A stretch of DNA of 64,000 bases, from positions 64,429 to 128,428 of the forward strand of contig JBGQCF010000001.1 in assembly GCA_041495205.1 (NCBI GenBank), given 5' to 3'. The stretch is from Gammaproteobacteria bacterium (GTDB lineage: Bacteria; Pseudomonadota; Gammaproteobacteria; Burkholderiales; JAHFRG01). Of this stretch, positions 1 through 64,000 are shown in pieces. The position numbers were made by a program, and so were the translations under genes. Below the pieces are notes generated by a model that worked only from the letters and a program-made list of their open reading frames with translations, had not been told where the DNA came from and made no database searches. Numbering within the stretch: the first letter of the stretch is position 1; each line of letters opens with the position of its first letter.

Positions 1-640
1 TTCCAAAGTGGTAAAACCTGCTTAAGCTGATCATTCGAAAGTTCCGGCATCCTATCACCCAAAATTTCATCAGAAGATCGTCATCGCTACTCATCCCGGG
101 GCTGAATTCCAGGCTATATCCGCCTACTAGATGCCACCACTTCCGAAGAACAAGCGTGGGTTGTGAACCCTGACCTTCAACGTCAGTTTTCGTAACCGAC
201 ATGTAATTCTCCAACATCTTAAATTCATCGAAGTCGCTCGGGGTGCTCCCGAAGTCTTGAACAATGACACAAGGATGGCCAGTGTCATACGGCTGAATCA
301 TGGCGGAAAAAAACAGCGCCAGATCGGTCTTCGAGGATTTAATGGCATTTACAAATGCGGTGTCCCACCCTGGGCAGCAGACCATGTCATCATTCACGTA
401 AACAATCCAGTCATTCTTGGCCTGAGCCGCCAAATGATTTACAGAAAGACAGACCCCGATATTTTTCTTTGTATGGCTGTGTTTAAGACCCTGCGATCGA
501 ACCCACTCTAGGGTGCCGTCAGACCCATCATTAACGTGGATTAATATTTCGTGGTCATAGCTTGAAAATTTTCTTATGCTTTCAACGCATAGTTTTAAGT
601 ACGCCAAATTGTTCCATGTCGGAATTAACACGCTGAACAT
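1..640 (-). CDS. Glycosyltransferase family 2, 3'-partial (runs off the left window edge)
   Basis: Absent from the ORF track because it has no in-window stop. My minus-strand translation from ATG 640-638 stays open to base 1: MFSVLIPTWNNLAYLKLCVESIRKFSSYDHEILIHVNDGSDGTLEWV...NDWIVYVNDDMVCCPGWD. It has a GT2-type N-terminus and an acidic DD(D) motif. The + ORF 257..511 is its antisense shadow. Confidence 0.75.
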   Translation of the reverse strand, partial: MFSVLIPTWNNLAYLKLCVESIRKFSSYDHEILIHVNDGSDGTLEWVRSQGLKHSHTKKNIGVCLSVNHLAAQAKNDWIVYVNDDMVCCPGWDTAFVNAIKSSKTDLALFFSAMIQPYDTGHPCVIVQDFGSTPSDFDEFKMLENYMSVTKTDVEGQGSQPTLVLRKWWHLVGGYSLEFSPGMSSDDDLLMKFWVIGCRNFRMISLSRFYHFG

Positions 641-740
641 TGGCAGCACCCCCTATTTATCATCCGTCGAAATATTTCCGAATAATGAATATATACTGGA
701 CACGAGTGCTTATTGCCGCTAAAAAGACAGGGATCTGAAT

Positions 741-2000
741 TTATACCAGCCTGTTTTCAACGACATCCGAGCTGTCACTATTTGTAGCAGCAGCTAACAG
801 AGCTGCTACCGTCAGGCTGTAAAATGCAGCGGTCATCTTAAGGTCGAAAATTTCAACCGTCAGTCCAAAAATAAAAAATCCGACCACCAGGCACACCCCG
901 AGCATCGCGGCAGTTCTTTTCAGGCGTGAGCCGGATTTAGAAGACTGAACAAAGATTGCGAAGGGCACAAAGTAAATGGACAGGATTGATGCCAGCCCCA
1001 AAAGTCCAAACCTCACTGTGGCCGCAAGAATTTCATTATGCACCTCCCCCATTCCTTGGTACGCCGCTTCCTTCGTAATAAAACCTGCTTGACTCAACGG
1101 CCCCATCATCTGGCTGAATCCATCAGGGCCTACACCGAATATCGGGTTTCGTGTAAACAAATAGATAGCGGCCTTCCAATGCTGGAAGCGTATCCCAATT
1201 GCGGTGTCTTCATTCCCCTGGGTAAAAGCGACGATATCTCCGTATATGTCGTCGATTCGGTGATGAATTCCATCAAAGAGTATATAACTGACGAAGCTCG
1301 CTGACACGATTAACGCGATCACCAAGGTGGATCTGGTCAACGTTTTCTCTTTGCTGTGGTATAGCGCCCAAATGATTGCTAATATCGGCACCGCAACCCA
1401 ACCGCCGCGAGAGCCTGTCTGAATAGAGGAATAAATGCCGGCGGCCAATGCCGAAACTTTCAAAATGAGAACCGGAACCGGATCTTTTCGCACCCAGTTA
1501 ACGCTAAACAACGAAAGAAAGCCGAGAATTAGCGATAAATCGCCAAAATGGATGGGATTTAAAAAGTACGAACCCAGCCGACCGCTCAAACCTTTCGGAT
1601 AGAGTGAAATCACCAGAGTCGAGGCAATTGCCCCCAAGGGGAAACCATATTGCAATACCGTTATTGCCGAAATTCGAGTGCGCCGCAACGCTAAATAAAT
1701 TGGAATCGCAAGCAAAAATCTGGAGGGCGCATCGTAAGGTGGTGGCGTAAATTTTGCGTGATAGGCTTGACTGAAAAAAACGGCCAAAACGAGGGAGACC
1801 ATGGCTGCGCTGTAAACGACAGCATTGCGATCCCAGGTTTCATAGGCGTGTTCTTTTTTTGTTTGAGCCAGAAAGTACAGAGAAATTATCACCAGCAAAA
1901 AAAAACATCCGTTAACCCCTCCTTTTAAAGTGAGAAGTAGGATAGGGTAAGAAAATAAAATAATCGGTATCGAACGATTCACGATTGAGCTTATTTTCAC
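741..2000 (-). CDS. O-antigen ligase/polymerase family membrane protein (Wzy_C domain)
   Basis: 419-aa polytopic membrane ORF. TGSRGGWVAVPIL, FGVGPDGF and GEVHNEILAATVRFGLLGL fit the Wzy_C / O-antigen-ligase domain pattern. Sequence alone cannot separate ligase from polymerase. Confidence 0.75.
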   Translation of the reverse strand: MKISSIVNRSIPIILFSYPILLLTLKGGVNGCFFLLVIISLYFLAQTKKEHAYETWDRNAVVYSAAMVSLVLAVFFSQAYHAKFTPPPYDAPSRFLLAIPIYLALRRTRISAITVLQYGFPLGAIASTLVISLYPKGLSGRLGSYFLNPIHFGDLSLILGFLSLFSVNWVRKDPVPVLILKVSALAAGIYSSIQTGSRGGWVAVPILAIIWALYHSKEKTLTRSTLVIALIVSASFVSYILFDGIHHRIDDIYGDIVAFTQGNEDTAIGIRFQHWKAAIYLFTRNPIFGVGPDGFSQMMGPLSQAGFITKEAAYQGMGEVHNEILAATVRFGLLGLASILSIYFVPFAIFVQSSKSGSRLKRTAAMLGVCLVVGFFIFGLTVEIFDLKMTAAFYSLTVAALLAAATNSDSSDVVENRLV

Positions 2001-2253
2001 GATTATAACGTTTACCTAAGTTAAAGCGGTTGTCGAAAGCGCTTCTCTATGGTGGGAAATCGACAGAGGGTTGTTGGCAACCCTGTGTATTCTCCTTGAT
2101 TGAAATGCTTGCTTCGTAGAAATGAGAATATCATTATTATGACTGGCTAGTCGTTAAAATAAAGTTTAAAGGGTTGAGTCCATTTTGTGAATCGTTGTTA
2201 ACGTGATGCTTATTGGCGGATGAAGTGTGCGGAATTATTGAGCGAGTTTTCGT

Positions 2254-2520
2254 TTAACGCAGAGGTGTCCGATTCTCGAGCTGGGCCGTAAACCGGTTCA
2301 ATCCCACTTTCTAACCTCAAATAGGCATCGTCCTGGATTGTGTACCGATGATCAGATAGAAGAATTTCAGCTAAGTCTCGCTGCTTGGGGATGAGCCGCA
2401 GTTATTCATGACCTTGTGCAGGCTCATGTTCACCGAATCATTGGTGTTGGTGGTGTAGATGACGCTCTTGATATCCGGCGGGTAATCAAGAATGGGGTGA
2501 TGCGCGGCCTGTCGAAGGCG
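2254..2520 (-). mobile_element. IS256-family (mutator-type) transposase C-terminal remnant, degenerate
   Basis: Minus-strand reading from 2520: ...ILDYPPDIKSVIYTTNTNDSVNMSLHKVMNNCGSSPSSET*LKFFYLIIGTQSRTMPI*G*KVGLNRFTAQLENRTPLR*. This recalls the conserved C-terminal block of IS256-family transposases (DYPxEIRxxIYTTNxIESLN...RGxFP...LKLLYLA...KWTMPIxxW..ALNxF). It carries three in-frame stops and lacks roughly the first 300 aa. Confidence 0.6.
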
Positions 2521-4401
2521 CTAGGCATGAATTTGTACGGTATTGTATTCCGGCACCCACTTGAGTAAATCCTGTTTTACCTGATCATCCTTAAGCGTAG
2601 TGTTCTGGCCGAGCCATAACGTTACTCCGGCGAGCCATTCCCCATTCACTTGCCTGGCGAGAGCGATGCGAAGTTTCGGGTGGTGTGTCGGCAGGGTATT
2701 TTCATCGTCGGCAAGCAGTTCTTCGTAGAGCTTTTCGCCGGGGCGCAAGCCGGTAAAGACGATTTTTATTTCGTCTTCGCTGAAACCGGAAAGACGGATC
2801 AAATCTTTGGCGAGTTCGGCGATTTTTACCGGTTCGCCCATGTCCATGACAAAAATTTCGCCGCCCTTTCCCATCAGGCCCGCCTGCAGCACCAGTTGCG
2901 CGGCTTCGGAAATGGACATGAAGTAGCGAATGATTTCCGGATGCGTGACGGTCACCGGCCCGCCTTTCTCGATCTGCTCGCGGAATTTCGGGATCACGCT
3001 GCCGGTGCTGCCCAGCACATTACCGAAGCGCACCATCACAAAACGCGTGCTCGATGACTGCTGCAAGGCCTGGCACAGCATTTCCGCAAGGCGCTTGCTC
3101 GCGCCCATGACATTGGTGGGATTGACCGCTTTATCCGTGGAAACCAGCACGAATTTTTCAATCCGGTGCTCGACCGCAGCCTGCGCCAGAACATAAGTGC
3201 CAAGCGCGTTGTTGAGCACCGCTTCCCAGGCGTTTTGCTCCTCCATCAACGGCACATGCTTGTAGGCCGCGGCGTGAAACACGATGGAAGGACGATATTG
3301 CGCCAACACCTGGTCTACCCGCGAGCGGTTCTTCACATCACCGATGACACAGGCCACCGCAGTATCCGGAAAATCGCTTTGAAATTCCTGCTCGATGCGG
3401 TAAAGCGCGTATTCGTTAAGATCGAATAAAATAAGCCTCTGCGGCTTGAAGCGCGCAATCTGCCGGCACAATTCGGAACCGATCGAACCCCCTGCGCCAC
3501 TGATCAAAATCGTTTTCCCGGCAAACAGCCCCTGCAGGCCGGCACTATCCAGAACAACAGGGTCACGCCCGAGTAAATCGTCGAGCTCAACGTGGCGGAT
3601 TTGCGATACCGTGACCTTGCCGCTCAGCAGGTCGTCAAACGAAGGCACCGTCAGGGCCTTCACCCCCGCCTCCACGCAGACATTCATGGCCCGGCGTCGC
3701 GCTGCGTGAGAGGCCGAGGGCATGGCAATGATGGCGTGCTGAATTTGCATGTTTTGTGAGTGAGAGGCAAGCTCGTTGATCTGTCCCAGTACTCTTACCC
3801 CGTGTAAAAGACTTCCGTGTTTTTCCGGGCCATCATCGAGAAATCCCACCACACGCCACTCGTGACTGCGCGCAAGATCCTTGACCAAGCTGGCTGCGGC
3901 ATCGCCGGCACCGAGCACAATCACCGGCTTCGCCTGCAGATTGGCGACGCTGTACAGCCGACGCTCTTTCCATAGCCGGTAGGCAATGCGGCTGCCGCAC
4001 ATGATGAGGAAAAGCAGTATCGGATCCAGAACCAGCACCGAGCGCGGAACCAAAGCCGGAATACGCAGCATCAAGAGCACGAGCGGAGCGGCCATTGCCG
4101 CCGACGCAACCGCAAGGAGGATGCGTTTCAGATCGGGTAGGCTGGCGTAGCGCCAGATGCCCCGGTAAAGGCCAAACCACAAAAAAATGAGCGCCTGCGA
4201 CAGCACAACCCATGGCAGCGTCTGCCACATGCTTCGCAGTTGAGGATGCTCGAAATCCATGTTGAAACGCAGCCAGTAGGCGAGACACCACGCGAGAGCC
4301 ACCGCGACCAGGTCGTGGCCAAAGGCAAGCCAAGCACGGAGGTTGACCCTAGGCGGAAACATAATTGCCGGAATGTCTTTTCCAGTAACGGTCGAAAACA
4401 A
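2521..4401 (-). CDS. Membrane-anchored nucleotide-sugar 4,6-dehydratase, WbpM/PglF/CapD family
   Basis: 626 aa with N-terminal TM helices. VLGAGDAAASL, ILISGAGGSIGSELCRQI, FHAAAYKHVPLME and MGASKRLAEM are the long-form CapD/WbpM signature. The internal Met at 4362 is an alternative start. Confidence 0.85.
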   Translation of the reverse strand: MFSTVTGKDIPAIMFPPRVNLRAWLAFGHDLVAVALAWCLAYWLRFNMDFEHPQLRSMWQTLPWVVLSQALIFLWFGLYRGIWRYASLPDLKRILLAVASAAMAAPLVLLMLRIPALVPRSVLVLDPILLFLIMCGSRIAYRLWKERRLYSVANLQAKPVIVLGAGDAAASLVKDLARSHEWRVVGFLDDGPEKHGSLLHGVRVLGQINELASHSQNMQIQHAIIAMPSASHAARRRAMNVCVEAGVKALTVPSFDDLLSGKVTVSQIRHVELDDLLGRDPVVLDSAGLQGLFAGKTILISGAGGSIGSELCRQIARFKPQRLILFDLNEYALYRIEQEFQSDFPDTAVACVIGDVKNRSRVDQVLAQYRPSIVFHAAAYKHVPLMEEQNAWEAVLNNALGTYVLAQAAVEHRIEKFVLVSTDKAVNPTNVMGASKRLAEMLCQALQQSSSTRFVMVRFGNVLGSTGSVIPKFREQIEKGGPVTVTHPEIIRYFMSISEAAQLVLQAGLMGKGGEIFVMDMGEPVKIAELAKDLIRLSGFSEDEIKIVFTGLRPGEKLYEELLADDENTLPTHHPKLRIALARQVNGEWLAGVTLWLGQNTTLKDDQVKQDLLKWVPEYNTVQIHA

Positions 4402-5377
4402 TCATGCCAAGTGTGTAAGCCGCACTCCAGCCGGCAACCAAAACAATTTGGCTGATCTCATCCTTGCCGATAGCCCACAGGGCGGATAAACCGGCAACGA
4501 GCATCAGAGCATACTCAAACCAGGCGGTTTTGCGATGCCCCCAGCCGATTTGCACCAGCCGCTGGTAATAATGCCCGCGATGCGCCTGCCAGATTTTTTC
4601 CCGCTTCAACGCGCGCTTAAGCAACGTGACGCTGGCATCAACAATAAAAGGCGAAAAAACCAATAGTGGAAACCAGAACGGCCAGTTGTTTTGCGACCAA
4701 CCCATGAGGCCCAGCGTTGCCGCGAGAAAGCCCAGTGGTATGGAACCGGCATCGCCCAAGAAGATTTTGGCCGGGTAGAAATTGAATAACAGAAAGGCAA
4801 GTGCCGCAGCGGCCACGGAGAAATTGACAGCGGCGAAAGACTCGCTGCCCGTCTGCCAGGCGGCGATGCCGTAAAAGCTAAAGCCGAACAGCGCCATTCC
4901 CCCGGCGAGCCCGTCCGAGCCATCCATGAAATTATACAGGTTGGTCATCCAGGCCGTGGCGAGAATGAAAAGCGGCAGTAACAGAACGCCGCCCGCGTTT
5001 GACCACAATATCGCGGCGATGGCCGCAGCCAGAAAATGCGCCGGCAGCCGCCAGACCGGGGAGATGCCGTAGATATCGTCGAGCAACGATATGGCGAGTA
5101 ACAGGGCCAGCGCGATCCAGAGCGGCCATGGCGGCAACAGCAGAAGAAACGAAATGAAGACGCCGAACATCAATCCCAAGCCGCCGGTGCGCGGCACCGG
5201 CGCGGTATGCAGCGAACGAGGATTCGGACGATCAAGCACGATTCGCGACAGACCGCCCTTGACCAGCCACCGCAGCGCCACAAATGCCGCTGCGAACGAC
5301 AGAAGGGGCGCCCAGTAATGGGAATATAGGAAATCCGTAATCAAGGTGCGTTCATCTTCGCTTGAGAAAGAAACCAT
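4349..5377 (-). CDS. Polyprenyl-phosphate HexNAc-1-phosphate transferase (WbpL/WecA/MraY family), initiating transferase
   Basis: 342-aa polytopic ORF. NLYNFMDGSDGLAGG and FLGDAGSIPLGF are Glycos_transf_4 (MraY-like) motifs. It sits between SDR and WbpM-like genes, as wbpL does in Pseudomonas aeruginosa O-antigen loci. Confidence 0.85.
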   Translation of the reverse strand: MVSFSSEDERTLITDFLYSHYWAPLLSFAAAFVALRWLVKGGLSRIVLDRPNPRSLHTAPVPRTGGLGLMFGVFISFLLLLPPWPLWIALALLLAISLLDDIYGISPVWRLPAHFLAAAIAAILWSNAGGVLLLPLFILATAWMTNLYNFMDGSDGLAGGMALFGFSFYGIAAWQTGSESFAAVNFSVAAAALAFLLFNFYPAKIFLGDAGSIPLGFLAATLGLMGWSQNNWPFWFPLLVFSPFIVDASVTLLKRALKREKIWQAHRGHYYQRLVQIGWGHRKTAWFEYALMLVAGLSALWAIGKDEISQIVLVAGWSAAYTLGMIVFDRYWKRHSGNYVSA

Positions 5378-6372
5378 TTTGCGGTTTCCATGAGCCCCTC
5401 GTCTACCGAAAAAGATGGTTTCCAGCCAAGCTCTTTGCGGATTTTTGAGTCCTCGACTTGCAGCGAGTCAAGGAGCCGCTCCGCTTCGGCCGACATACCA
5501 AGCAATTGCGCGGCGAAGCGCAGCGCTGCGGGCGGAAAAGGCCAAAGCCGCGCCGGGCGGTGCATGGCGCGTGCCAGCCGCTTGAGAAGCTGTGCAGTCG
5601 AAACGTCCTCGTTGTCTCTAAGCAGATAAGTTTTGCCTGCCGCTTGCGGATGAGTCGCGCAGATCATTATGGCGTCAACCAGGTTCTCGACGAAGATAAG
5701 ACTCCGCGAGTTGTTTACCGAAGCAAGCGGAAGCGGAATACCGCTTTTTACCGCCTGCAACAGGCGCAGAAAATTGCCTTTTACGCCCGGCCCGTAAACC
5801 AGCGGTGCCCGCAGAATCACCACTTCCAGGTCGGTTTCATCACCGACGCGCTTCAACGCCTGCTCCGCTTCCCATTTGGACACGGCATAAGCATCCTGCG
5901 GGTTGGGAACGTCGGTTTCGGAGAAGCGCTCCCTCTCCCCTGGAGCTTGCCCTGAGTAACGCCGAAGGGGGAGAGGGTGGGGGTGAAAGACAGTTTTTTC
6001 TCCGTTGACCTTCACTGTACTTAAGAAAACCAATCGCTTGACGCCCGTCTGCGATGCCATGCGCGCCAGCCGCTCGGTTGCGTGAGTATTGACCTGGCGG
6101 AATTCCATAAGGGAATCTTCAGCAATTTCCTTCATGATGTGCACGCGCGCCGCCAGGTGAACGATGACGTCTATGCCATGTAACGCCGCCCGCCAGTCGG
6201 TGCCGGGTCCAAGCGAGTCAACACTGCAGGCGATGACCCCGGACGGGAGGACGGGTTTAGTTTGCGAGACTGAGCGGACTGTCCCTTTTACGTCCCAGCC
6301 ACAGGCAAGCAATTGCTTGCACGCTGCCTGGCCGATAAAACCGGTGGCCCCGGTTATCAAGGCGGAAGGCAT
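5341..6372 (-). CDS. NAD-dependent epimerase/dehydratase (extended SDR, WbpK/WbjF-like) with an in-frame palindromic insertion
   Basis: ITGATGFIGQAA Rossmann motif and YAVSKWEAE catalytic YxxxK. A segment VFHPHPLPLRRYSGQAPGERER lies between the conserved VKVNGE and FSETD blocks and is encoded by the hairpin at 5931-5976. Confidence 0.8.
   Translation of the reverse strand: MPSALITGATGFIGQAACKQLLACGWDVKGTVRSVSQTKPVLPSGVIACSVDSLGPGTDWRAALHGIDVIVHLAARVHIMKEIAEDSLMEFRQVNTHATERLARMASQTGVKRLVFLSTVKVNGEKTVFHPHPLPLRRYSGQAPGERERFSETDVPNPQDAYAVSKWEAEQALKRVGDETDLEVVILRAPLVYGPGVKGNFLRLLQAVKSGIPLPLASVNNSRSLIFVENLVDAIMICATHPQAAGKTYLLRDNEDVSTAQLLKRLARAMHRPARLWPFPPAALRFAAQLLGMSAEAERLLDSLQVEDSKIRKELGWKPSFSVDEGLMETAKWFLSQAKMNAP
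5931..5976. repeat. GC-rich palindromic (REP/MITE-like) unit inside a CDS
   Basis: ccctctcccc (5931-5940) is the exact reverse complement of ggggagaggg (5967-5976), with a 26-nt loop and then gtggggg. I saw only one copy in the window. Confidence 0.6.
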
Positions 6373-6392
6373 TTCCTGCCGTGGCGAATCAT

Positions 6393-7460
6393 TTAACGCA
6401 AGAACTCTTCGCCTGTTGTCAGATCTCTATCTTCGACCATCAGCTTGTGCTTTTTTAATAGTTCCAGTGTGCCCCGGAAGTCCAGCACAGAATCTGCAGA
6501 ACTGAACTCTTTAGTAAGCGCATTGCCCACCCCTTTTTCTCCGTCGCCCAACTCCGGAAGCATTGGCCGGATGGCGAAATAATCGCCGCGTTTGACGCAA
6601 TGATGAAGCTCTTCTTCCGAAACCATGATCTCGTGCATTTTTTCGCCAGGGCGTACGCCGATTATCTTAACATCGATGCCGCGGTCACCGATTAACGCCT
6701 TGGCTATGTTTATCACCGTTGCAGAAGGCGCATTGGGAACATAAGTTTCCCCTCTTTTTGCTTCCCGTAATGCGGCAAAGACCGTATTTACGGCTTGATA
6801 GAGGCTGAGCAGGAAGCGAGTCATCTCGGGAGCAGTAATCGTGACCGGCCCACCGTTTCTTATCTGATCATGAAACAGTGGAATTACCGAACCACGGGAT
6901 GACAGCACATTGCCGTAGCGCACGCAGATAAAGCGTGTACTGGGGTTTAGAATGTTCGCCGAAATGAAAATACGTTCCTGCAGCGACTTGGTCATGCCCA
7001 TCACGTTGACCGGCTTGCAGGCCTTGTCGGTGCTGATGCCGATGACAGTCTGCACCGGATAGCTGTTTTCCTGAATGGCGCGGACGATATTGTAAGCGCC
7101 GATACAATTGGTCATGATGGCTTGGGTGGGAAAATATTCACAGGTGGGAACCTGCTTTAATGCCGCCGCGTTGACCACGATGTCAGCGTTTTTCACCGCC
7201 GAGCAAACATCGTCGTAGCCGCGCACATCGCCGATGCGGAATTCGAGCACGTTGAGAAAATTGTTGTAAATCACCTCGTCGGTGGTGACGGTTTTGTGCA
7301 GATACGACACTCGCATCTCGTGCTGCTTGGCCTCGTCCCTGGAAAAGACGATCACTTTTTTGGGCGTGCCGTGTTCGCCGGAAAGCACGCGGCGCACAAA
7401 GGTCTTCCCCATGGAGCCGGTGCCGCCGGTGACCAGAATGGTTTTCCCTTCAAATATCAC
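6393..7460 (-). CDS. UDP-GlcNAc 4,6-dehydratase/5-epimerase (inverting), FnlA/WbjB/Cap5E/WbvB-like short CapD family
   Basis: 355 aa. GKTILVTGGTGSMGKTF, FSRDEAKQHEM, AAALKQVPTCEYFP and RYGNVLSSRGSVIPLF match my recollection of FnlA-type enzymes. The C-terminal tail is longer than in PseB. Confidence 0.8.
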   Translation of the reverse strand: MIFEGKTILVTGGTGSMGKTFVRRVLSGEHGTPKKVIVFSRDEAKQHEMRVSYLHKTVTTDEVIYNNFLNVLEFRIGDVRGYDDVCSAVKNADIVVNAAALKQVPTCEYFPTQAIMTNCIGAYNIVRAIQENSYPVQTVIGISTDKACKPVNVMGMTKSLQERIFISANILNPSTRFICVRYGNVLSSRGSVIPLFHDQIRNGGPVTITAPEMTRFLLSLYQAVNTVFAALREAKRGETYVPNAPSATVINIAKALIGDRGIDVKIIGVRPGEKMHEIMVSEEELHHCVKRGDYFAIRPMLPELGDGEKGVGNALTKEFSSADSVLDFRGTLELLKKHKLMVEDRDLTTGEEFLR

Positions 7461-10697: not shown

Positions 10698-10699
10698 CT

Positions 10700-11662: not shown

Positions 11663-11675
11663 ATGTCGGCCAGTT

Positions 11676-12325: not shown

Positions 12326-12352
12326 CTTGCGTTGGACTCACCGGTCAGAACA

Positions 12353-13984: not shown

Positions 13985-14305
13985 CCTAAAATGTGGATTC
14001 CCAACTTGCCTAAGGCGATCCGGATTTCCGGATTACCGGAGGCGATGCGAATTTCAAACTTTCCATAGGTGCCACCTTGACCAGCACTGTTTCGCTGGTA
14101 ACGTGGATTTCGAGCGGCAGCGCTTTACCGAGCTTGACCGGATCAAAATTCGACTTGACCTCATTGAGTTTCAGCCCGTGGTAATCAAAGAGGGAATATC
14201 AAGGTGGGTCATATCAACATTGGGCTACCCGTTGTTTCTGAGTTCACATACCATGTGTAATTACGGTTCAACAGAACCCGCACACTTGCCGTAATCTTCG
14301 ACAGG

Positions 14306-57158: not shown

Positions 57159-57866
57159 TCAGGACTTCACCTTGTTCCCGGTTCCCAACACAAAGAGATA
57201 CTGGCACATCGGTGCGAAGCCGGTATGCAAAACCTCATCGTTCATGCCAAAAAGGAACGCATGATCAAAATATTTTCCAATCAATTTCTTCAAATCCTGG
57301 CCATTCATGCAATTTACATGTCCTTCCTTACTTGGCGGCGAAGCATAAGCCTGCGACTCAAGGGATGGCGCACCACAGATGAACACTCCACCGGGCTTAA
57401 TGGAAAGACATATGTTTTTCAGGTAAGCCTCTTCGTGTTCTTTCGGTATATGTTCAATGACATCCAGAGAGAAGGCGGCATCGAACAAATCACCAGCGTG
57501 ATAGGGACCTGTCAGTATGTCATGGACGGCGAGCGTGACGGGCCACTCTCGGTCAATATGCTTACCTGCCTCTTCTATGAACACGGGATCGAAATCAATG
57601 GCATGGAGTTCATCAACCTCGGGGTGTAATAATCGACTGGCAAAAGCATCCCCACAACCCACTTCCAATACACGTGAATAGCCCGTCAGCATTTTTGCAA
57701 CAAATTTGTGGCGGGCAAGGGTAAATCCAAGCAGCTTGGGGTCCAGACGCCACATCACACTGGCCCTGAGACTCATTGGCGAGAGGCCCTTGGCCTTCAT
57801 CATCTCAATCATGAACTGATATTGGTATTCTCTTGTGTATTTTGTGCTCATTTTAAGTGTGTTCAA
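57159..57866 (-). CDS. Class I SAM-dependent methyltransferase
   Basis: VLEVGCGDAFASRLL motif I and FDAAFSLDVIEHI. Confidence 0.75.
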   Translation of the reverse strand: MNTLKMSTKYTREYQYQFMIEMMKAKGLSPMSLRASVMWRLDPKLLGFTLARHKFVAKMLTGYSRVLEVGCGDAFASRLLHPEVDELHAIDFDPVFIEEAGKHIDREWPVTLAVHDILTGPYHAGDLFDAAFSLDVIEHIPKEHEEAYLKNICLSIKPGGVFICGAPSLESQAYASPPSKEGHVNCMNGQDLKKLIGKYFDHAFLFGMNDEVLHTGFAPMCQYLFVLGTGNKVKS

Positions 57867-57878: not shown

Positions 57879-59411
57879 TCAGAGCAGCCCCTGATTCGCA
57901 TAATTCTGTATAAACGCTTTCCCCATCCTTCCCATGTCTCCGTATCCACTGTACTTCTTATAGAGATCGGTGATTGATCCCTGACGCTTCTCGTCCTCTT
58001 CCGAATACATTGCGTTACCATCCAAACGATCTAGCATCTCCGCAACGACGTCTCTTATGTCCTCTGGGGAGTTATCAATGATGTCTATCTTTTTCTGCTC
58101 ATATCCGTGAGAAGTAAACATACGCCCCAGATTAGTAGAAAGCACTTCATGAAAGGTTGCGTACCGGCGCTCCCCTCTCAGCCAAAGCAGCTTTGGAATG
58201 AAAAGACAGTTTCCGGCATGGGGACGACCGGACATCGGGACGAAATTAGTCATCACAACAGGCACGCCGAATAGAACGGGAGTTAGCACGGGGCCTGACG
58301 AAACTCCGACGAAACAACGGCATTGCGAGAACAGGAAAATATCCATCCTATTTGATCGAACATCGCTGAGAGCGTAGTCAAAAAACCCCGTCATCCCAGC
58401 GAATGGTTTCATCTTTGGGTCTCCCACTCGAATGACATAGCCACCGCGTTGGACTACCTCCTGAATGGCCAGCTTGTAACTCTCGATGTCCGCATTTCGA
58501 TATGAATCATATGCTTCGTCTGCAAGATAGGAACCCGTCTTATACCCCGCATCCCTGACATGAAGGCTTACGAACCACGCATCCCTTGGGATCCCAACCT
58601 TTTCCAGTTGTTCCCTTCCATATTCCTGATCGTCGGCATTTAACTGAAACAGGGGTTTGCGATTTTGTTTTTCCCATTCCTTTTGAACGACGCACTTCGC
58701 ATGTTCGATATAGATGGCTTTGCCCCGCAGGGTGGCGGACATACAGACATCTGATTCCAGATATTTTCTGAGCGGGGAAAGCTGCCGGATGACCTCTTCG
58801 TCATCAAACACGGTTATATATTGCTTCCAGTAATCAAGCATGACGGGGTTGAGGACCGGATCTCCCGGGTGAATTAATTGGATTAATTTGCGCTTAGGAA
58901 GCCACCCGAGAAGCATGGCCTTCACATGCGTGTCCAGGTAGGCATGAGCATTGTAATATTGGAAAATATCCTCATTAATGATCCGGAGTCCCAGAACATC
59001 GAGATGCTTCTGCCTGATAATACTGTCTTGGGTATTAATAAAATCCTGCATGACGTTCTGGAGATTATCGGTGTCCTGCAACATGAGATGCGAGGTGCAG
59101 ACCCTAACCCGCCACTTCAAAATGCACTCCGGATATGCTTCCCGATACCGCTGAAAGTAATACAAGAACAACCTGGAATACGTGATGAGGTCATGGCTGC
59201 GATGCCCGAAGATCAGGCTCAATATCTTTTCGTAACCCCAGCGCCTTTGGGGGACAGCGGAGACCACCGCTGCATAGAAATAATATTTTATCGGGAACGC
59301 AATGCGCTGACAGGCTGATCCGCACTTTGCAAAGATTGAACGGAGGACCTTTAAAGATTGCGCCGCTCGCGGAGGCAGTAACCGTACTATTTGAGCGCGG
59401 CTCAGGAACAT
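57879..59411 (-). CDS. Putative glycosyltransferase of an uncharacterised family (paralogue of 49114..50484)
   Basis: 510 aa. WFVSLHVRDAGY, YRNADIESY, RGGYVIRVGD and FVGVSSGP align with the 49114..50484 protein. Confidence 0.5.
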   Translation of the reverse strand: MFLSRAQIVRLLPPRAAQSLKVLRSIFAKCGSACQRIAFPIKYYFYAAVVSAVPQRRWGYEKILSLIFGHRSHDLITYSRLFLYYFQRYREAYPECILKWRVRVCTSHLMLQDTDNLQNVMQDFINTQDSIIRQKHLDVLGLRIINEDIFQYYNAHAYLDTHVKAMLLGWLPKRKLIQLIHPGDPVLNPVMLDYWKQYITVFDDEEVIRQLSPLRKYLESDVCMSATLRGKAIYIEHAKCVVQKEWEKQNRKPLFQLNADDQEYGREQLEKVGIPRDAWFVSLHVRDAGYKTGSYLADEAYDSYRNADIESYKLAIQEVVQRGGYVIRVGDPKMKPFAGMTGFFDYALSDVRSNRMDIFLFSQCRCFVGVSSGPVLTPVLFGVPVVMTNFVPMSGRPHAGNCLFIPKLLWLRGERRYATFHEVLSTNLGRMFTSHGYEQKKIDIIDNSPEDIRDVVAEMLDRLDGNAMYSEEDEKRQGSITDLYKKYSGYGDMGRMGKAFIQNYANQGLL

Positions 59412-59426: not shown

Positions 59427-59879
59427 CTAGCCACTGCTTGAGGAATTCGGCTTGCAGCCATGCGTGGAAATGAGAAACTTTTCAATCCTCACGAGATTCT
59501 CGATCAATCCCGGTACGACTGGAACTGTTTTTAAATCCTCGAGAGATAACCACCGCATAGCCTGTCCCTCACCAAGCACCAGCACCTCGTCGCCAACCTG
59601 GCAATGAACCGGAAAGACATGATTGTGTGCGGCACCAGCCCCACGCCACTCCCAACAAAATAGCTCATCTCTCACTTGACCCGGAACACATCCCAGTTCC
59701 TCACGAAGTTCACGCTCCAACGCGTTCCGCAGGTTTTCGCCCTGCTCGACAAGGCCGCCGAAAAAAGTCCAGAAACCGGGGAAGGGAAGTCCGGGGGCAT
59801 AATCTCGCTGCTGCAACAGTATCCGGCCGTCATTTCTGTAGATGAGCGCCTTCACCGCATGATTCACAGGCTCGGTCAA
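59427..59879 (-). CDS. NUDIX hydrolase
   Basis: Nudix box GGLVEQGENLRNALERELREELG (GX5EX7REUXEEXGU). Confidence 0.85.
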   Translation of the reverse strand: MTEPVNHAVKALIYRNDGRILLQQRDYAPGLPFPGFWTFFGGLVEQGENLRNALERELREELGCVPGQVRDELFCWEWRGAGAAHNHVFPVHCQVGDEVLVLGEGQAMRWLSLEDLKTVPVVPGLIENLVRIEKFLISTHGCKPNSSSSG

Positions 59880-59902: not shown

Positions 59903-61009
59903 TTAAGAGTGTTCAAGAAACACCGGCCCATTGGTGGACATGCTGATGCTTGAGCCGGAGACGAATTCTGTCAGCGCATATCGCAGATCCTCATCAATCT
60001 GCTGCTCCAGACGTGCGCTCATCCATTTGGCCAGTTCTGTCCGATAGGCGTGAACCGCAGGATCCATAATGCGGCACGCCTCAAGGCCAAGTAGCGGTGA
60101 GAGTCTTGCGTCATCGCACTTGCCTGCAGCGGCGATCGAGAGAAAGCTTTTCAGCATGGATTGCAGGGGGCCTGGTGCGCGATCCCATTCGGGATCGCCC
60201 GTCTTCTCATTGCCTTCGGAGCGAATGCAGCCAGGCTCAGAAGTAAAATCAAGCTCGCAGGAGCGTTCGGTTGTCTCAACCTGAATCATCCGGCAACGTT
60301 TCAGAGCATTGCGCTCGAGAACCGCCGCACAGGGGAATTCACCAGCCTGCAGGTCAAGCCTGACTCTTGCGCCGCCGCGCTCAATCGTGACGCCGTTAAA
60401 CCGGACGGGATCAACCGTGAGGGTGCGCAGGAGGGACAGGATATGCGGAAAGACGTCGTGAATGACTGATATTGAAGAATCGTAGTGCTTCTGCTCTCCG
60501 TGGCGAATTTCCGTTGCAGGATCAGTCCATGTGAAGTTGATTCTTTTGACCGAACCGGAGCGGGCAATATCGTCTGCAAAAACTTGAGCATACCGCGCGA
60601 AGCGAAACACATGCCCGGCGCACAGCGGCACACCGAGCTTTCCCGCCATATCGATCAGTAGACCCGCGTCCACCGCTGTAAGCGCGAATGGCTTTTCAAC
60701 CAGAGTCGGCGCTCCGGCAAGAAGCGCTGCTACCGTTGCCGGAAAGTGCGATCGCGCTGCATTCGCAACGATCACCGCCTCGGGCCTGCCGGCGTCGTCA
60801 TATCTCGGCCATTGATTGGCCACCTCGACACGGCCGACCCCGGTCTTTTGCGCCCAGTTTCGCAAGCCCTCGGCATTCCCCGGCGAGTGCATTGAGACGG
60901 CAACCTCGCCCGGCAACAACTCATTTAAAGCGACGGCGATTGTCCGCGCCCAACGGCCGCCGCCAAGTATCGCTATTTTCCGCTGTCCTCGCCGAAACCG
61001 TCCCATCAT
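59903..61009 (-). CDS. Gfo/Idh/MocA-like oxidoreductase
   Basis: KIAILGGGRWARTIAVAL Rossmann start, LVEKPFAL (EKP motif), and a C-terminal domain of appropriate length. Confidence 0.65.
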   Translation of the reverse strand: MMGRFRRGQRKIAILGGGRWARTIAVALNELLPGEVAVSMHSPGNAEGLRNWAQKTGVGRVEVANQWPRYDDAGRPEAVIVANAARSHFPATVAALLAGAPTLVEKPFALTAVDAGLLIDMAGKLGVPLCAGHVFRFARYAQVFADDIARSGSVKRINFTWTDPATEIRHGEQKHYDSSISVIHDVFPHILSLLRTLTVDPVRFNGVTIERGGARVRLDLQAGEFPCAAVLERNALKRCRMIQVETTERSCELDFTSEPGCIRSEGNEKTGDPEWDRAPGPLQSMLKSFLSIAAAGKCDDARLSPLLGLEACRIMDPAVHAYRTELAKWMSARLEQQIDEDLRYALTEFVSGSSISMSTNGPVFLEHS

Positions 61010-61737
61010 CGATCGGGTCGTTCTGCTTTACGACCCGCTACGACATACTGCGCGCCAACCGGTATGCGGGAAAGCGCGCGGTCAAGCGCTCGAAAGAACT
61101 TTTGAGCGAAAGGGGTAAACAGCGTGTAGCGTACTTGCGGCGCGGATAACCCCGCATCAATAAACAAGCGGCGGAGCCGCCAGGGTGGGAGAAGCATGGC
61201 GTTCTTGTCCAATTCGCATGTGCGCACCACCCACTGGGTCGCAGGATTAAAGGGGTTGTGTTCGATCACGACCAACTGCCCGCCCGGTCGAACGACCCTG
61301 GCCATTTCCCGCATGAATTCCGGCCATTGCTGTTTGGGAATATGATGCAACACGCAAATTGCGTACGCACAGTCAAAGACGTTGTCTTCGTGCGGCAACC
61401 GATTGCCTTCATAGGCTTTATAATTGACACCGGGATTTTCGCGCGTGGCCAAGGCCAGGGAATCCTGCGATACATCGATGCCATGAAGCTCGCCCACGGC
61501 TTTCGCGATCTCGCCATGGCCCAAACCAATGCCACAACCGACATCCAGCACCTTCAAACTTTTTAGCGGTCCTACTGAAATGAATGTATCGAGAAGCCGC
61601 TCGACCTTATCACGCACGAAGAACGCATGCTTTTGGCCAAAATATTTCGTCGATCTCTCGATCGCCGCCTGATATGTCCGTGCATACGAATCAAATTCCT
61701 TGCTCATGCCGGAACCTTCAATTACCCGTGCGTCCAT
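61006..61737 (-). CDS. Class I SAM-dependent methyltransferase (Methyltransf_11-like)
   Basis: VLDVGCGIGLG motif I, FDCAYAICVLHHI, and GGQLVVIEHNP. Confidence 0.8.
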   Translation of the reverse strand: MDARVIEGSGMSKEFDSYARTYQAAIERSTKYFGQKHAFFVRDKVERLLDTFISVGPLKSLKVLDVGCGIGLGHGEIAKAVGELHGIDVSQDSLALATRENPGVNYKAYEGNRLPHEDNVFDCAYAICVLHHIPKQQWPEFMREMARVVRPGGQLVVIEHNPFNPATQWVVRTCELDKNAMLLPPWRLRRLFIDAGLSAPQVRYTLFTPFAQKFFRALDRALSRIPVGAQYVVAGRKAERPDR

Positions 61738-61742: not shown

Positions 61743-62765
61743 TCAGGCACTTTTATGCCCCCCGATGCCATTGGCATGATCACTCGGGACATTGACAGAA
61801 CGTTCGACAATCACCAGAGGGCGATTCTGCTGCTGAAGATACACTTGACCCAGGTATTTGCCGATGATGGCCAGAAACATCCCATTCAAACTGATACTCA
61901 AGAGTAAAAGCAGCACTATGGTGGCGAAGCCGCCCGGCCAGTCGCTCCCATAAAATATCGCTGCCGCAAAATAATACATCGCCAAACCAACGGTGATCGC
62001 TGAGATGATAAAACTAATGTAGCCTGCCAGCCTGAGCGGAAACAGCGTCATGAAAAAGATTCCATCGCTCGCGAGATTCACCAGTCTGCGCAAGGGAAAC
62101 TTGCTTCGCCCATGCCTGCGTTTGGCACGGTCATAGGGAATACCGGCTTCATTTATGGCGAATGCCGATGTCAATCCCCTGAGGTAAGGGTTGATGTCAT
62201 TCAGGGCCATCACTCTGTCCAGCACCGTGCGATCGATCAGCCGGAAGTCGCCTGCATCGCGGGTGATGCGATCCTCCGATATATGGTTGATAAATGCGTA
62301 GAATGCCCGCCGCCCCCAGGCCAGGAAATGATTTTCCTCGCGACAACGACGAATCCCGACCACGACATCGTGCCCACGTTTCCAAAGATCAAGAAATTCG
62401 AGGATGAGTCCCGGTGGATCCTGGAGGTCACAATCAATTTGCACGACCGCCTCGCCCTGCGCCAGGCGATAGCCCGCCATAAGTGAACGATGAAATCCGT
62501 AATTCCGATTGAACCGCAGCACCTTCACGCGTGGATCGCGCACAGCGATTTCTGTAAGTCGTACAAACGTCGAATCCTCACTATGGTTGTCTGTGAAAAT
62601 CATTTCGACATCGTATCGCGTATCCGACTTGAAGACTTCGCAGAGTGCGTCATAGGCGAGGCGTACATTCGTTTCTTCGTTATAGACAGGCACAACAATC
62701 GACACGAGACGGCGCTGTTGACCAGCTTTCCTTGCAACATCCGTGAGGTCGCTTTCGATGCCCAT
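61743..62765 (-). CDS. GT2 polyprenyl-phosphate glycosyltransferase (GtrB/ArnC/DPM1-like)
   Basis: VSIVVPVYNEETN, FTDNHSEDST and QIDCDLQDPP (DxD) are followed by two C-terminal TM helices (FFMTLFPLRLAGYISFIISAI; IVLLLLLSISLNGMFLAIIG), the GtrB/ArnC architecture. Confidence 0.8.
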   Translation of the reverse strand: MGIESDLTDVARKAGQQRRLVSIVVPVYNEETNVRLAYDALCEVFKSDTRYDVEMIFTDNHSEDSTFVRLTEIAVRDPRVKVLRFNRNYGFHRSLMAGYRLAQGEAVVQIDCDLQDPPGLILEFLDLWKRGHDVVVGIRRCREENHFLAWGRRAFYAFINHISEDRITRDAGDFRLIDRTVLDRVMALNDINPYLRGLTSAFAINEAGIPYDRAKRRHGRSKFPLRRLVNLASDGIFFMTLFPLRLAGYISFIISAITVGLAMYYFAAAIFYGSDWPGGFATIVLLLLLSISLNGMFLAIIGKYLGQVYLQQQNRPLVIVERSVNVPSDHANGIGGHKSA

Positions 62766-62767
62766 AC

Positions 62768-64000
62768 TTAAACCGCCGTCCTATCCATTGCGGATACTTG
62801 TATAAAATCTTCCCCGCTCACAATTGGCAGAACGCGCCCCTGAAAACCCAACTTTTTGAGATACGACAACACCTCGCCCTGGATATGCCAGGCAAGATTA
62901 ACGATTGGAGCAGAGTCAGACATGTCAAGTTCCTCGTCAGACAGGATTGGAATACCGGTCCCGGGAACATAGCATCCCACTTTAGGCGACATTGGCTGTT
63001 CATAGACCGCGCTGATGTGCTCCTCCGTCAACTTGAGGAGTTCCAATATGATTGCAGCTCGACCGGGGAATGCCTTCGCCCTTAATCTGCCATGATTTTC
63101 AATTTCGCTTAGCAGTTCTTTTCTTTTTCTTTGGCGCCATGCCTCTATATTTGCAGCCATTCGAGAAAACCCCTGAGCGAACAGGGACTCTCGTCGAAGA
63201 ACTTCAATTTCATCAACTACTCTACCGGCCGAAACGGGAGTGCGTGAAAGGAAGACGCGGATATTTCCCCCGTATCTCCTGGGGAATTCAAGACCAACGA
63301 TATGGGCATTTAAAGACCTGGCGATAAATTTGAACGACGTATAGCTGTACGTCCGTGGGTGCTCGTGGTAGAACGTGTCGAATTGGTTGAGCTCCAGCAC
63401 GGATCCCAAGTAGTGATTTTCCACGACAAGATGCGACGTCGTGTTTTGCATGAGAACATCGAGCGCCGCCAGCACATCCTCGAGATCTTCAATGTGGGCA
63501 AAGACATTCGTGAACGTAACTATGTCGGGCTTCCCGTATTTTTCGACAAAGCTGAGCGCGACCTCCTTGTTGAAATAATCCTGCATCACGTTGTGGTGCT
63601 TTGACCGCGCCTCAACGGCAGCATCCGTCGGTTCTATTCCGTATGTTCTCGCGCCCTTCTCCTTGAACATCGAAAGCAGGCTCCCGTCATTGCATCCAAT
63701 ATCCAGTATCGTTTTGCCGGCTAAACGCCCGAATTGTGATTCGCACGAATCAACAAGCTCTCTCATCCCATTCAAAACATCTTTCGTTAGTGCGGCCCTG
63801 TAATGGTATGTATGAGGGAATAAAATATGTTTCGGCACCTGGTATTGCTGATGCGCGGTCTTGCAGTTGTTACAGAAAAGGATCTGGATGGGGTATTTTT
63901 CGGTTTTTCTCTGCTCGCCTATCCTGACCAGGTCGTCGCACATTGCGTGATATCCCAGATCCAGAACCTTCTCCAGTTCATGGTTTCCGCAGACTTCACA
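62768..64000 (-). CDS. Zn-ribbon SAM methyltransferase with C-methyltransferase-type C-terminal domain, 5'-partial (start beyond right window edge)
   Basis: The ORF track starts at Met 63943, but the frame stays open to base 64000: CEVCGNHELEKVLDLGYHAMCDDL..., which with the downstream FCNNCKTAHQ forms the N-terminal Zn ribbon seen in paralogues 17991 and 53260. ILDIGCNDGSLL is motif I. Confidence 0.7.
   Translation of the reverse strand, partial: CEVCGNHELEKVLDLGYHAMCDDLVRIGEQRKTEKYPIQILFCNNCKTAHQQYQVPKHILFPHTYHYRAALTKDVLNGMRELVDSCESQFGRLAGKTILDIGCNDGSLLSMFKEKGARTYGIEPTDAAVEARSKHHNVMQDYFNKEVALSFVEKYGKPDIVTFTNVFAHIEDLEDVLAALDVLMQNTTSHLVVENHYLGSVLELNQFDTFYHEHPRTYSYTSFKFIARSLNAHIVGLEFPRRYGGNIRVFLSRTPVSAGRVVDEIEVLRRESLFAQGFSRMAANIEAWRQRKRKELLSEIENHGRLRAKAFPGRAAIILELLKLTEEHISAVYEQPMSPKVGCYVPGTGIPILSDEELDMSDSAPIVNLAWHIQGEVLSYLKKLGFQGRVLPIVSGEDFIQVSAMDRTAV

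Follow-up and report, generated by a model that had tools for sequence, protein, structure and literature searches.

A probable O-antigen locus of at least 78 kb, rich in methyltransferase genes, in an uncultured soil betaproteobacterium

A 64,000 nt stretch of DNA from an uncultured soil member of the Burkholderiales (positions 64,429 to 128,428 of contig JBGQCF010000001.1, referred to below as the window) is probably the central 64 kb of a Wzx/Wzy-dependent lipopolysaccharide (LPS) O-antigen locus of the rfb type, which is at least 78 kb long and adjoins core-oligosaccharide genes. To judge from gene content and composition, the locus is a mosaic of five modules: a wbpL-wbpM anchor, a block of Wzx, Wzy and glycosyltransferase (GT) genes, an AroB-related cassette, a pseudaminic acid (Pse) cassette, and a cassette combining CDP-glucose, C-methyltransferase and transketolase (TK) genes.

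Programme-listed open reading frames (ORFs) were combined with a stop-to-stop frame analysis of the window, and a chain of 58 minus-strand ORFs was scanned with Pfam and NCBIfam. Minus-strand reading frames of at least 200 codons number 56 (20,593 codons in total); the 15 on the plus strand (3,918 codons) all lie antisense inside minus-strand genes. Pfam families were found for all but seven of the 58 ORFs, and NCBIfam assigned six of these seven. An earlier note, made from the sequence alone, had placed every credible gene on one strand, and the family-supported ORFs of the chain do indeed all lie on the minus strand, as do the features described below unless stated otherwise. Public gene calls agree, those of the JGI, NCBI and Logan assemblies tiling the complete window on the same strand throughout, with one 185 aa exception. 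This ORF (15358-15915, plus strand), the sole opposite-strand one annotated by public gene callers, had a single match below 1e-30 among 1.84 billion representative proteins, 91% identical and of equal length; its remaining matches were few, weak and confined to the first 28-50 residues. The packing is operon-like: coding sequence takes up approximately 95% of the window, and 4 nt overlaps between neighbouring genes are common. Scans of the window for tRNAs and Rfam families gave no match.

The genes at both edges of the window are cut, as the earlier note had it: a GT2 glycosyltransferase at 1-640 (Glycos_transf_2) is 308 aa in full, the whole gene being present in the overlapping public loci L010 and L011, and a C-methyltransferase at 62768-64000 is 424-446 aa in full. 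Also borne out was the proposal that the locus runs on past both edges, with same-strand glycan genes for at least 10 kb upstream and approximately 5.6 kb downstream, giving a visible region of at least 78 kb. Upstream, the span examined reaches a window-equivalent position of about 72.8 kb, short of the 5' end of the locus; scanning metagenome contigs for exact matches yielded no extension towards that end. Upstream are genes for a CDP-glucose 4,6-dehydratase, a glucose-1-phosphate cytidylyltransferase, two unknown proteins, a zinc alcohol dehydrogenase (Zn-ADH), a class I methyltransferase, a split transketolase and another unknown protein; downstream are the rest of the GT2 gene, an MBOAT gene and its partner, two GT2 genes and a heptosyltransferase gene.

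Several components of a Wzx/Wzy-dependent O-antigen system can be recognised in the first third of the window and its downstream flank. The initiating enzyme is a WbpL/WecA-type N-acetylhexosamine (HexNAc)-1-P transferase (4349-5377; Glycos_transf_4, 105 bits), encoded beside wbpM in relatives, and the flippase is a Wzx protein with at least nine hydrophobic segments (19348-20868; Polysacc_synt and Polysacc_synt_3). Ligation and linkage to the core are represented by a Wzy_C protein (741-2000; 63.7 bits against a cut-off of 31.7, with a weak RfaL match and at least six hydrophobic segments), a probable WaaL-like O-antigen ligase whose gene sits between wbpM and core glycosyltransferase genes, and by heptosyltransferase (Glyco_transf_9) and GT2 genes no more than about 6 kb downstream. 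The probable Wzy polymerase (12353-13984) has at least nine hydrophobic segments, a Wzy_C score of 24.8 bits against the same cut-off and no NCBIfam match. Both Wzy_C proteins counted in the earlier note were thus found, one of them below the Pfam cut-off, and we provisionally assign them as ligase and polymerase respectively. Of the one and a half flippases that it proposed, the Wzx stands and the half does not, blastx of all intergenic gaps against the window proteins having yielded no Wzx fragment.

The anchor module (2.5-11.7 kb) begins with a WbpM/PglF-like membrane UDP-GlcNAc 4,6-dehydratase (2521-4401; Polysacc_synt_2, 406 bits), followed upstream by wbpL and a short-chain dehydrogenase/reductase (SDR) of the Epimerase family (5341-6372; epimerase or reductase, 31-68% identical in relatives). 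Beyond these lie a PseB/FnlA-like soluble UDP-GlcNAc 4,6-dehydratase (6393-7460; Polysacc_synt_2, 294 bits; scores of 301 bits to PseB and 245 bits to FnlA, both below cut-off), an RmlD-like 4-reductase (7457-8353; RmlD_sub_bind), two GT4-family glycosyltransferases of GT-B type (8311-9549 and 9546-10697; Glycos_transf_1 and Glyco_trans_4 domains) and an SDR epimerase or dehydratase of low GC content (10700-11662; family match, 0.43). Together with a non-hydrolysing UDP-GlcNAc 2-epimerase, WecB (16845-17978; TIGR00236, 253 bits against a cut-off of 210), this module would constitute a pathway to a UDP-2-acetamido-6-deoxy-L-hexose. A scan of genome collections found relatives of WbpM in 80 loci at 54-95% identity (Burkholderiales, Nitrosomonas and Usitatibacter), the nearest being 95% identical in a soil metagenome-assembled genome (MAG), followed by Pelomicrobium, Sulfuricellaceae and Nitrosomonas at 60-67%; the organism thereby falls among uncultured Burkholderiales. 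What any of these 80 loci has in common with the window is confined to wbpM, wbpL and the adjacent SDR gene; further upstream all differ. On this comparison the locus consists of a conserved anchor and a strain-specific acquired region, the usual O-antigen pattern.

The second module (12.3-23.3 kb) comprises, besides the Wzy candidate, WecB and Wzx, a TylF-type methyltransferase, a GT2 glycosyltransferase (15860-16909; Pfam family), a C-methyltransferase, a GT2 of low GC content (21301-22215; 0.42) and a further RmlD-like reductase (22329-23255; RmlD_sub_bind, 161 bits). Gene calls for the JGI and Logan copies include this low-GC GT2 gene (L002, 3024-3899), whereas those for the NCBI MAG copy have small opposite-strand ORFs in its place; this may be a strain-level disruption or a difference in annotation. 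Downstream of the window, between the O-antigen and core genes, the MBOAT protein and its 330 aa partner (L010, 16039-18518) resemble O-acylation pairs of the AlgI/AlgJ or DltB type, and on this resemblance the glycan may also be O-acylated.

Ten methyltransferase-family genes were counted in the window, in agreement with the earlier note: one of TylF type (14306-15199), one of FkbM type (33692-34537), four of the zinc-ribbon, TcaB9-like type (CMT1 to CMT4, starting at 17991, 53260, 55053 and 62768), one of which is degenerate, and four of class I, dependent on S-adenosylmethionine (SAM; starting at 25161, 34852, 57159 and 61006). An eleventh, of class I, lies just upstream of the window. Comparison with solved structures, a check that could have overturned the claim, backs the stated folds. 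The CMT1 protein (17991-19307; Methyltransf_13, 23 and 14) aligns end to end with the sugar 3-C-methyltransferases MtmC, KijD1 and TcaB9 at E = 1e-82 (1e-76 to 1e-82 over the full length of PDB entries 4rv9 and 3ndi), and the TylF-type protein (TylF, 348 bits) matches the sugar O-methyltransferases NovP and MycF at E = 1e-85 (PDB matches 1e-79 to 1e-85). Methyltransferases make up approximately 1-2% of bacterial genes; at a background of 2%, ten among 58 genes has a binomial probability of about 1e-7, and the density is far beyond chance. The methyltransferase paralogues are mutually only 20-33% identical, and hence are not recent duplicates. The other counts in the earlier note were likewise reproduced by family scan, with four aminotransferases, three Gfo/Idh/MocA enzymes and, for the roughly nine SDR-fold enzymes claimed, nine intact ones and a truncated rmlD (48469-49107). 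Methyltransferase, aminotransferase and oxidoreductase genes thus have an unusually high share of the locus. Where the earlier note expected a heavily methylated, multi-aminosugar glycan, methylated amino and deoxy sugars are reasonable to predict.

The description of all ten methyltransferases as intact holds for nine. A four-cysteine zinc domain, SAM motif I and a C-terminal Methyltransf_14 domain are all present in the proteins encoded at 17991-19307, 53260-54531 and 62768-64108, whereas the CMT3 protein (55053-56273) has no CxxC pair and reads 'GAYSFKDDSTL' at the site of '(E/D)(I/L)G(C/S)NDG' in the other three. It keeps the overall TcaB9-like fold match (E = 1e-15), and 'SFKDD(S/T)' is retained in five orthologues of 39-68% identity in the metagenome loci L102, L114, L121, L125 and L171. 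These alignments describe a conserved, divergent subfamily in which SAM binding is doubtful and which may not be a methyltransferase at all, having perhaps been recruited to some reaction that transfers no methyl group. The CMT3 gene has a WbuC cupin gene as its neighbour here and in the majority of orthologue loci, and adjoins a canonical C-methyltransferase gene in several. A disrupted methyltransferase that had been placed at 15451-15633 could not be confirmed: the 129 aa ORF there (15244-15633) has a CxxC...CxxC motif, no Pfam or NCBIfam family and no homologue, and was rejected as a methyltransferase remnant, as it did not match a profile made from the four C-methyltransferases.

The AroB-related cassette (23.3-37.7 kb) is found as a unit in unrelated bacteria as well. 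Its last gene encodes a TIGR04326 'surface carbohydrate biosynthesis' protein (23263-25161; 538 bits), preceded by genes for a class I SAM methyltransferase (25161-26057; 61-62% identical to cassette genes of Elusimicrobiota and Leptospira), a KdsB-like cytidylyltransferase (25951-26721; NF003952, 213 bits against a cut-off of 193; 80% identical to the Leptospira gene), a Gfo/Idh/MocA oxidoreductase (27031-28134), a HisC-like class I/II aminotransferase (28131-29219), a PGDH-like D-2-hydroxyacid dehydrogenase (29216-30181), the AroB-related putative sugar-phosphate phospholyase (cyclizing) of family TIGR04425 (30178-31263; 471 bits against a cut-off of 400), a FabG-like SDR (31241-31957), a GmhA-like SIS isomerase (31970-32695) and a second Gfo/Idh/MocA oxidoreductase (32559-33611), the oxidoreductases, aminotransferase, dehydrogenases and isomerase being identified by family scans and synteny with Leptospira kmetyi. 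In that species, 11 consecutive genes are collinear at 55-80% identity (55% for the TIGR04326 orthologue), despite a GC content of 40%: PFTS, Gfo/Idh/MocA, SIS, SDR, AroB-related, 2-hydroxyacid dehydrogenase, aminotransferase, Gfo/Idh/MocA, cytidylyltransferase, methyltransferase and TIGR04326. The cassette is taken to span 23263-33611, perhaps with the gene for a PFTS-motif polysaccharide biosynthesis protein (36056-37699; TIGR04417, 381 bits); the Leptospira cassette, too, is headed by a PFTS gene. Between these lie the FkbM-type gene (33692-34537; family scans, 64% identical to a Sulfuricella cassette gene) and a class I SAM methyltransferase gene (34852-35769; Pfam family).

Eight cassette genes are also collinear in an Elusimicrobiota MAG, where six are 72-80% identical, the methyltransferase 61% and TIGR04326 50%; in variants from gammaproteobacterial and Sulfuricella MAGs, the genes in common with the window are 70-89% identical. 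By comparison, the vertically inherited WbpM is 55-67% identical to its family-level relatives, less than these cassette genes are to theirs, which indicates horizontal transfer of the cassette. The gammaproteobacterial and Sulfuricella variants have an HpcH/HpaI-type aldolase beside the cytidylyltransferase (L093, 4695-5534; L095, 4942-5706) and no HisC-like aminotransferase, which suggests two versions of the pathway.

Among solved structures, dehydroquinate synthases (DHQS) match the AroB-related protein over its length (E = 2.5e-44) and more closely than do DOIS or ValA, a sedoheptulose-7-P cyclase; the protein retains the nucleotide, metal and substrate motifs of DHQS (GGG..D, PTTLLAQ.DS..G.K..IN..KN and DE..GIR...N.GH.FGHA.E). 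It falls below the cut-off of the aroB equivalog (256 bits against 305) and belongs instead to TIGR04425, annotated only as a hypothetical cyclizing phospholyase. Its relatives number thousands, 70-90% identical and spread over many phyla, and in the loci examined the gene always accompanies that of a KdsB-like cytidylyltransferase in a glycan cassette and never stands among shikimate-pathway genes. An AlphaFold model of the TIGR04326 protein (pLDDT 87, pTM 0.87) has a GT-B fold, the best PDB matches being GT1-family transferases and UDP-GlcNAc 2-epimerases (E of about 2e-7). The constant association with the cytidylyltransferase suggests that the product is acidic, activated with CMP and transferred by TIGR04326; from gene content it is probably an acid sugar or a cyclitol. 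That the cassette makes a class of monosaccharide new to bacterial glycans, such as a CMP-activated carbocyclic acid (quinate-like, or 'carba-ulosonic') or an aminated or methylated derivative of one, is a speculative proposal that we consider unlikely. In it, the AroB-related enzyme would close the ring of a 3-deoxy-ulosonate phosphate or a ketose phosphate in the manner of DHQS, and TIGR04326 would add the product to the O-antigen. Searches of the literature returned no paper mentioning TIGR04425, TIGR04326, TIGR04417, TIGR04372 or 'AroB-related', none linking a dehydroquinate synthase to a Leptospira rfb locus, and no biosynthetic information on caryose or carbocyclic LPS, which makes the idea of caryose speculation.

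Upstream of the PFTS gene lies what appears to be a modified pseudaminic acid cassette (37.7-50.5 kb). Three of its products exceed the equivalog cut-offs of the pseudaminic pathway: PseI, the synthase (38342-39385, a 347 aa gene call; TIGR03586, 502 bits against 340), PseG, the UDP-sugar hydrolase, here fused to a PseH-like GNAT domain (42839-44416; 287 bits against 153), and the aminotransferase PseC (47300-48472; TIGR03588, 479 bits against 423). The best PseB candidate is the anchor-module dehydratase at 6393-7460, 40 kb away, which scores below the PseB cut-off of 408 bits. No window protein reaches the cut-offs of PseH (21.6 bits against 93) or PseF (23.7 against 206), functional analogues of both being plausible. 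One gene encodes a 675 aa fusion of a KdsB-like cytidylyltransferase and a class III aminotransferase (44413-46440; family scans); its aminotransferase part resembles GSA aminomutases, and it is not a PseF equivalog. Interspersed are genes for a GNAT N-acetyltransferase (37745-38332), a PIG-L family de-N-acetylase (39397-40086) and an SDR-fold protein (40872-41825), all assigned by Pfam family, an inositol monophosphatase/CysQ-family phosphatase (40090-40875) and an ATP-grasp ligase (41830-42879), both from family scans, and an aldo/keto reductase (AKR; 46437-47303; Pfam family). Their presence suggests de-N-acetylation and re-acylation of the nonulosonic acid. The cassette is completed by a TIGR04372-family glycosyltransferase (49114-50484; 188 bits) and by a truncated RmlD-like gene (48469-49107), which lacks the N-terminal Rossmann segment, matching only profile positions 83-283, and aligns to residues 97-297 of the 305 of the RmlD-like protein at 22329-23255 with 46-48% identity. 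The truncated gene overlaps pseC by 4 nt and lies upstream of it, at the usual position of pseB.

The last cassette, from 50.7 kb onward, extends beyond the window. Its recurrent part runs from a DegT-family sugar aminotransferase (52191-53285; family scans, conserved-cassette member) through CMT2 (53260-54531; motif I present, cassette member), a WbuC-family cupin (54541-55056; TIGR04366, 133 bits), CMT3, an SDR epimerase or reductase (56283-57155) and a class I SAM methyltransferase (57159-57866), both assigned by Pfam family and synteny, and a TIGR04372-family glycosyltransferase (57879-59411; 221 bits) to a NUDIX hydrolase (59427-59879; Pfam family). These are followed by a Gfo/Idh/MocA oxidoreductase (59903-61009; N-terminal domain match only), a class I SAM methyltransferase (61006-61737), a GT2 glycosyltransferase (61743-62765) and CMT4, whose N-terminus is cut by the window edge, the last three assigned by Pfam family. 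Directly upstream of CMT4, outside the window, are genes for the glucose-1-phosphate cytidylyltransferase RfbF (TIGR02623, 469 bits against a cut-off of 300) and the CDP-glucose 4,6-dehydratase RfbG (TIGR02622, 476 against 278), as expected of a CDP-6-deoxyhexose pathway. On the metagenome contig L102, the NUDIX-to-DegT genes run straight on from those for transketolase, methyltransferase and ADH, at 51-95% identity, and parts of the arrangement occur in at least seven further loci. This contiguity indicates that a conserved cassette has here been split by inserted CDP-glucose, GT2, methyltransferase and Gfo/Idh/MocA genes. The split transketolase (N and C subunits), class I methyltransferase and Zn-ADH (L007, 1-6771) recur widely as a unit, which has more than 580 relatives on metagenome contigs and is often joined to C-methyltransferase, WbuC and DegT genes; a two-carbon branched sugar is a possible product. 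At the near end of the cassette are a NeuD/PglB/VioB-like sugar N-acetyltransferase (51473-52204; 145 bits, under a cut-off of 161) and a hexapeptide acyltransferase (50668-51357; family scans). The latter has the lowest GC content in the window (0.40, and 0.39 at third codon positions, its neighbours being at 0.50-0.58) and stands between two intergenic gaps; on composition it is probably a recent single-gene insertion.

The mosaic reading is based on four observations: the low identity of the methyltransferase paralogues, the truncated rmlD, a spread of per-gene GC content from 0.40 to 0.62 across the window, and a remnant of pseI. This remnant (35790-35895) encodes 35 aa at 83% identity to the C-terminus of PseI, and its DNA is, by estimate from the alignment, approximately 82% identical over about 100 nt to the end of the intact gene at 38342. 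It falls between the methyltransferase gene at 34852 and the PFTS gene, where a Logan assembly has an 84 aa ORF called at 35801-36055, and has the look of a scar left by recombination where two modules meet. Intergenic gaps of 183-690 nt are found at the module junctions (11.7-12.4, 13.98-14.3, 15.2-15.9, 20.9-21.3, 26.7-27.0, 34.5-34.9, 35.8-36.1 and 50.5-50.7 kb). A search for repeats of at least 40 nt or insertion sequence elements as module borders gave none, except the similarity between two rmlD copies. Synteny in related genomes, a comparison called for in the earlier note, has the cassettes recurring as units and only the anchor common to relatives. The content is better described as a mosaic of horizontally shared cassettes than as one exceptional tailoring pathway, and the locus would have grown as such cassettes were acquired complete, on the upstream side of a wbpL-wbpM anchor that is conserved by vertical descent.

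Such heterogeneity could in principle be an artefact. The spread in GC content between genes, and the presence of close relatives of the cassettes in unrelated phyla, are what would be expected had metagenomic mis-assembly joined glycan genes of different organisms into one 64 kb strand. However, a 124 kb contig from a JGI metagenome, a 114 kb contig of an NCBI MAG (GCA_041491045.1) and several Logan assemblies of separate runs all carry identical proteins in the same order, overlapping public loci cover the window without a break, and one window protein is also found on a contig of 734 kb. The earlier note had named chimerism as something that would undo its claim; independent assemblies carrying the same sequence make mis-assembly extremely improbable and effectively refute it.

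In the proposed mechanism, WbpM and WbpL would make the first HexNAc-type sugar and attach it to undecaprenyl phosphate, and about ten further putative transferases (four to five GT2, two GT4, two TIGR04372, TIGR04326 and possibly PFTS) would extend the unit with nucleotide sugars from four pathway cassettes. The PseB/FnlA-like dehydratase, RmlD-like reductase and WecB would supply the UDP-2-acetamido-6-deoxy-L-hexose. PseC, PseG-GNAT, PseI and the cytidylyltransferase-aminotransferase fusion would supply a modified CMP-pseudaminic acid, on which PIG-L, ATP-grasp and GNAT enzymes probably exchange the N-acyl groups. The third cassette would yield CDP-glucose-derived 6-deoxyhexoses, C-methylated by TcaB9-type enzymes, aminated and N-acylated, to which the split transketolase and Zn-ADH may add a two-carbon branch, and the AroB-related and KdsB-like genes would provide the acid sugar or cyclitol, probably activated with CMP and transferred by TIGR04326. 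The TcaB9-type enzymes would C-methylate nucleoside diphosphate (NDP)-4-keto-6-deoxyhexoses, probably CDP-linked, and the TylF, FkbM and class I enzymes would methylate hydroxyl or amino groups of sugars; the nine to eleven methyltransferases would in this way be cassette members or act on hydroxyl or amino groups. Finally, Wzx would flip the unit, Wzy polymerise it and the WaaL-like protein ligate it to the core.

Several points weigh against the reading as a single O-antigen locus. All the sugar products, like the substrates and the single glycan itself, are predictions from genes alone, and as PseB, PseH and PseF equivalogs were not found, the nonulosonic acid may differ from canonical pseudaminic acid. 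The Wzy candidate scores below its Pfam cut-off, and no Wzz-family match was found among the window genes or the flanks examined, although such a gene may be elsewhere in the genome. About 11 transferases are many for a single repeat unit and leave room for a second product, and further export or assembly genes may lie beyond the 5' part that was seen. No regulatory signal rose above chance: a scan of 1-20000 for promoters and terminators gave counts at the level of shuffled sequence (22 against 19.2; 29 against 24.9), and the ops/JUMPstart core GGCGGTAG had a single match in the window, on the wrong strand and at chance level.

The earlier note had allowed for two or three glycans encoded back to back, and the locus might accordingly specify an O-antigen and a second surface polysaccharide, or sugar donors for flagellin or pilin glycosylation. 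Consistent with this are the approximately ten glycosyltransferase-like genes in addition to WbpL, the four nucleotide-sugar cassettes, each of which is found alone in other genomes, and the gaps at module junctions, which could hold promoters; pseudaminic acid is, moreover, a common flagellin modification. Yet about 78 kb contain just a single initiating transferase, a single Wzx and a single candidate each for Wzy and the ligase, the same span has no ABC transporter, Wza/Wzc, Bac_transf, Kps, Maf or flagellar genes and no second initiating enzyme, and L. kmetyi carries the AroB-related cassette inside a single rfb locus. With a single enzyme for each assembly step and no other export system, one complex O-antigen is favoured, and several glycoconjugates are a less favoured alternative to which we give some weight but consider unlikely. 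Far less probable still is that the genes serve to make a glycosylated secondary metabolite. The synthesis of antibiotic deoxysugars classically involves DegT aminotransferases and methyltransferases of the TylF, TcaB9 and FkbM types, and the best solved-structure matches of the methyltransferases are to enzymes of antibiotic pathways, MtmC, KijD1, TcaB9, NovP and MycF; but genes for a polyketide synthase, a nonribosomal peptide synthetase or an aglycone are absent from the span examined, which does encode WbpL, WbpM, Wzx, Wzy_C proteins and a heptosyltransferase, and TylCIII-type C-methyltransferases have already been proposed for LPS sugars in Coxiella.

The reading as an O-antigen locus also has precedents. 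Leptospira rfb loci have been reported to range from approximately 4 kb to over 100 kb, with 1-12 SAM methyltransferases, 2-9 pyridoxal phosphate enzymes, 8-18 Rossmann-fold proteins and 12-20 GT-A proteins per locus, and the present locus, with 11 methyltransferase-family genes along at least 78 kb of a single strand, is within the reported ranges of size and gene classes. Its size and methyltransferase density are hence not unprecedented, and the earlier statement that the content far exceeds a typical O-antigen cluster is true of enterobacterial clusters and not of Leptospira. Families TIGR04326, TIGR04372, TIGR04417 and TIGR04425 (all above cut-off) and WbuC are common to both, in addition to the collinear block in L. 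kmetyi. The window differs in its betaproteobacterial host and GC content (approximately 0.52 against 0.40), in its wbpL/wbpM anchor, the L. kmetyi segment seen having a Bac_transf-type initiating enzyme, and in the addition of the Pse and TK/CDP-glucose/C-methyltransferase cassettes at this position; the remaining content also differs.

The anchor is instead like that of the wbp clusters of Pseudomonas aeruginosa, with wbpM and wbpL, a variable, horizontally acquired region upstream and Wzx/Wzy dependence. Those clusters have wbpL-wbpM at the 3' end, are approximately 15-25 kb long and contain few or no methyltransferases, unlike the window locus with its length, its methyltransferase-family genes and four separate unusual-sugar cassettes. 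The locus is, in sum, a giant O-antigen locus of Leptospira type on an anchor of Pseudomonas type, a known kind whose existence would not surprise a specialist.

The individual cassettes can be compared with known pathways in the same way. The window has PseC, PseG and PseI in common with the pathway of Campylobacter and Helicobacter (PseB, C, H, G, I and F) and departs from it in lacking PseB, PseH and PseF equivalogs, in the PseG-GNAT and KdsB-like-aminotransferase fusions and in its extra PIG-L, ATP-grasp, AKR, phosphatase and SDR genes. The window C-methyltransferases have the three domains (zinc ribbon, SAM and C-terminal) of TcaB9, MtmC, KijD1 and TylCIII, with full-length similarity at 17991; unlike in those systems, there are four to five paralogues, one without SAM motif I, and the carrier is probably CDP (RfbF/RfbG) rather than dTDP. 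A TylCIII-type C-methyltransferase, CBU_0691, has been proposed to act in the synthesis of the branched LPS sugar virenose in Coxiella burnetii. The 30178-31263 protein resembles AroB and the sugar-phosphate cyclases (EEVS and DOIS) in aligning with DHQS structures and keeping their motifs, and is unlike AroB in scoring below the aroB cut-off and above that of TIGR04425, and in its glycan-cassette context.

Giant, single-strand, methyltransferase-rich O-antigen loci are therefore not peculiar to Leptospira, but occur also in uncultured soil Betaproteobacteria, and are built from portable multi-gene cassettes that cross phyla at 55-90% protein identity. The new points are the TcaB9-like subfamily without a SAM motif and two widespread cross-phylum cassettes without an assigned product, the split-transketolase/C-methyltransferase/WbuC cassette and the AroB-related/KdsB-like/TIGR04326 cassette, one of which is common to a Leptospira species; the AroB-related cassette is the most promising lead. 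As the LPS of Leptospira defines its serovars and is of poorly understood structure, the products of these cassettes would inform both leptospiral serology and environmental glycobiology.

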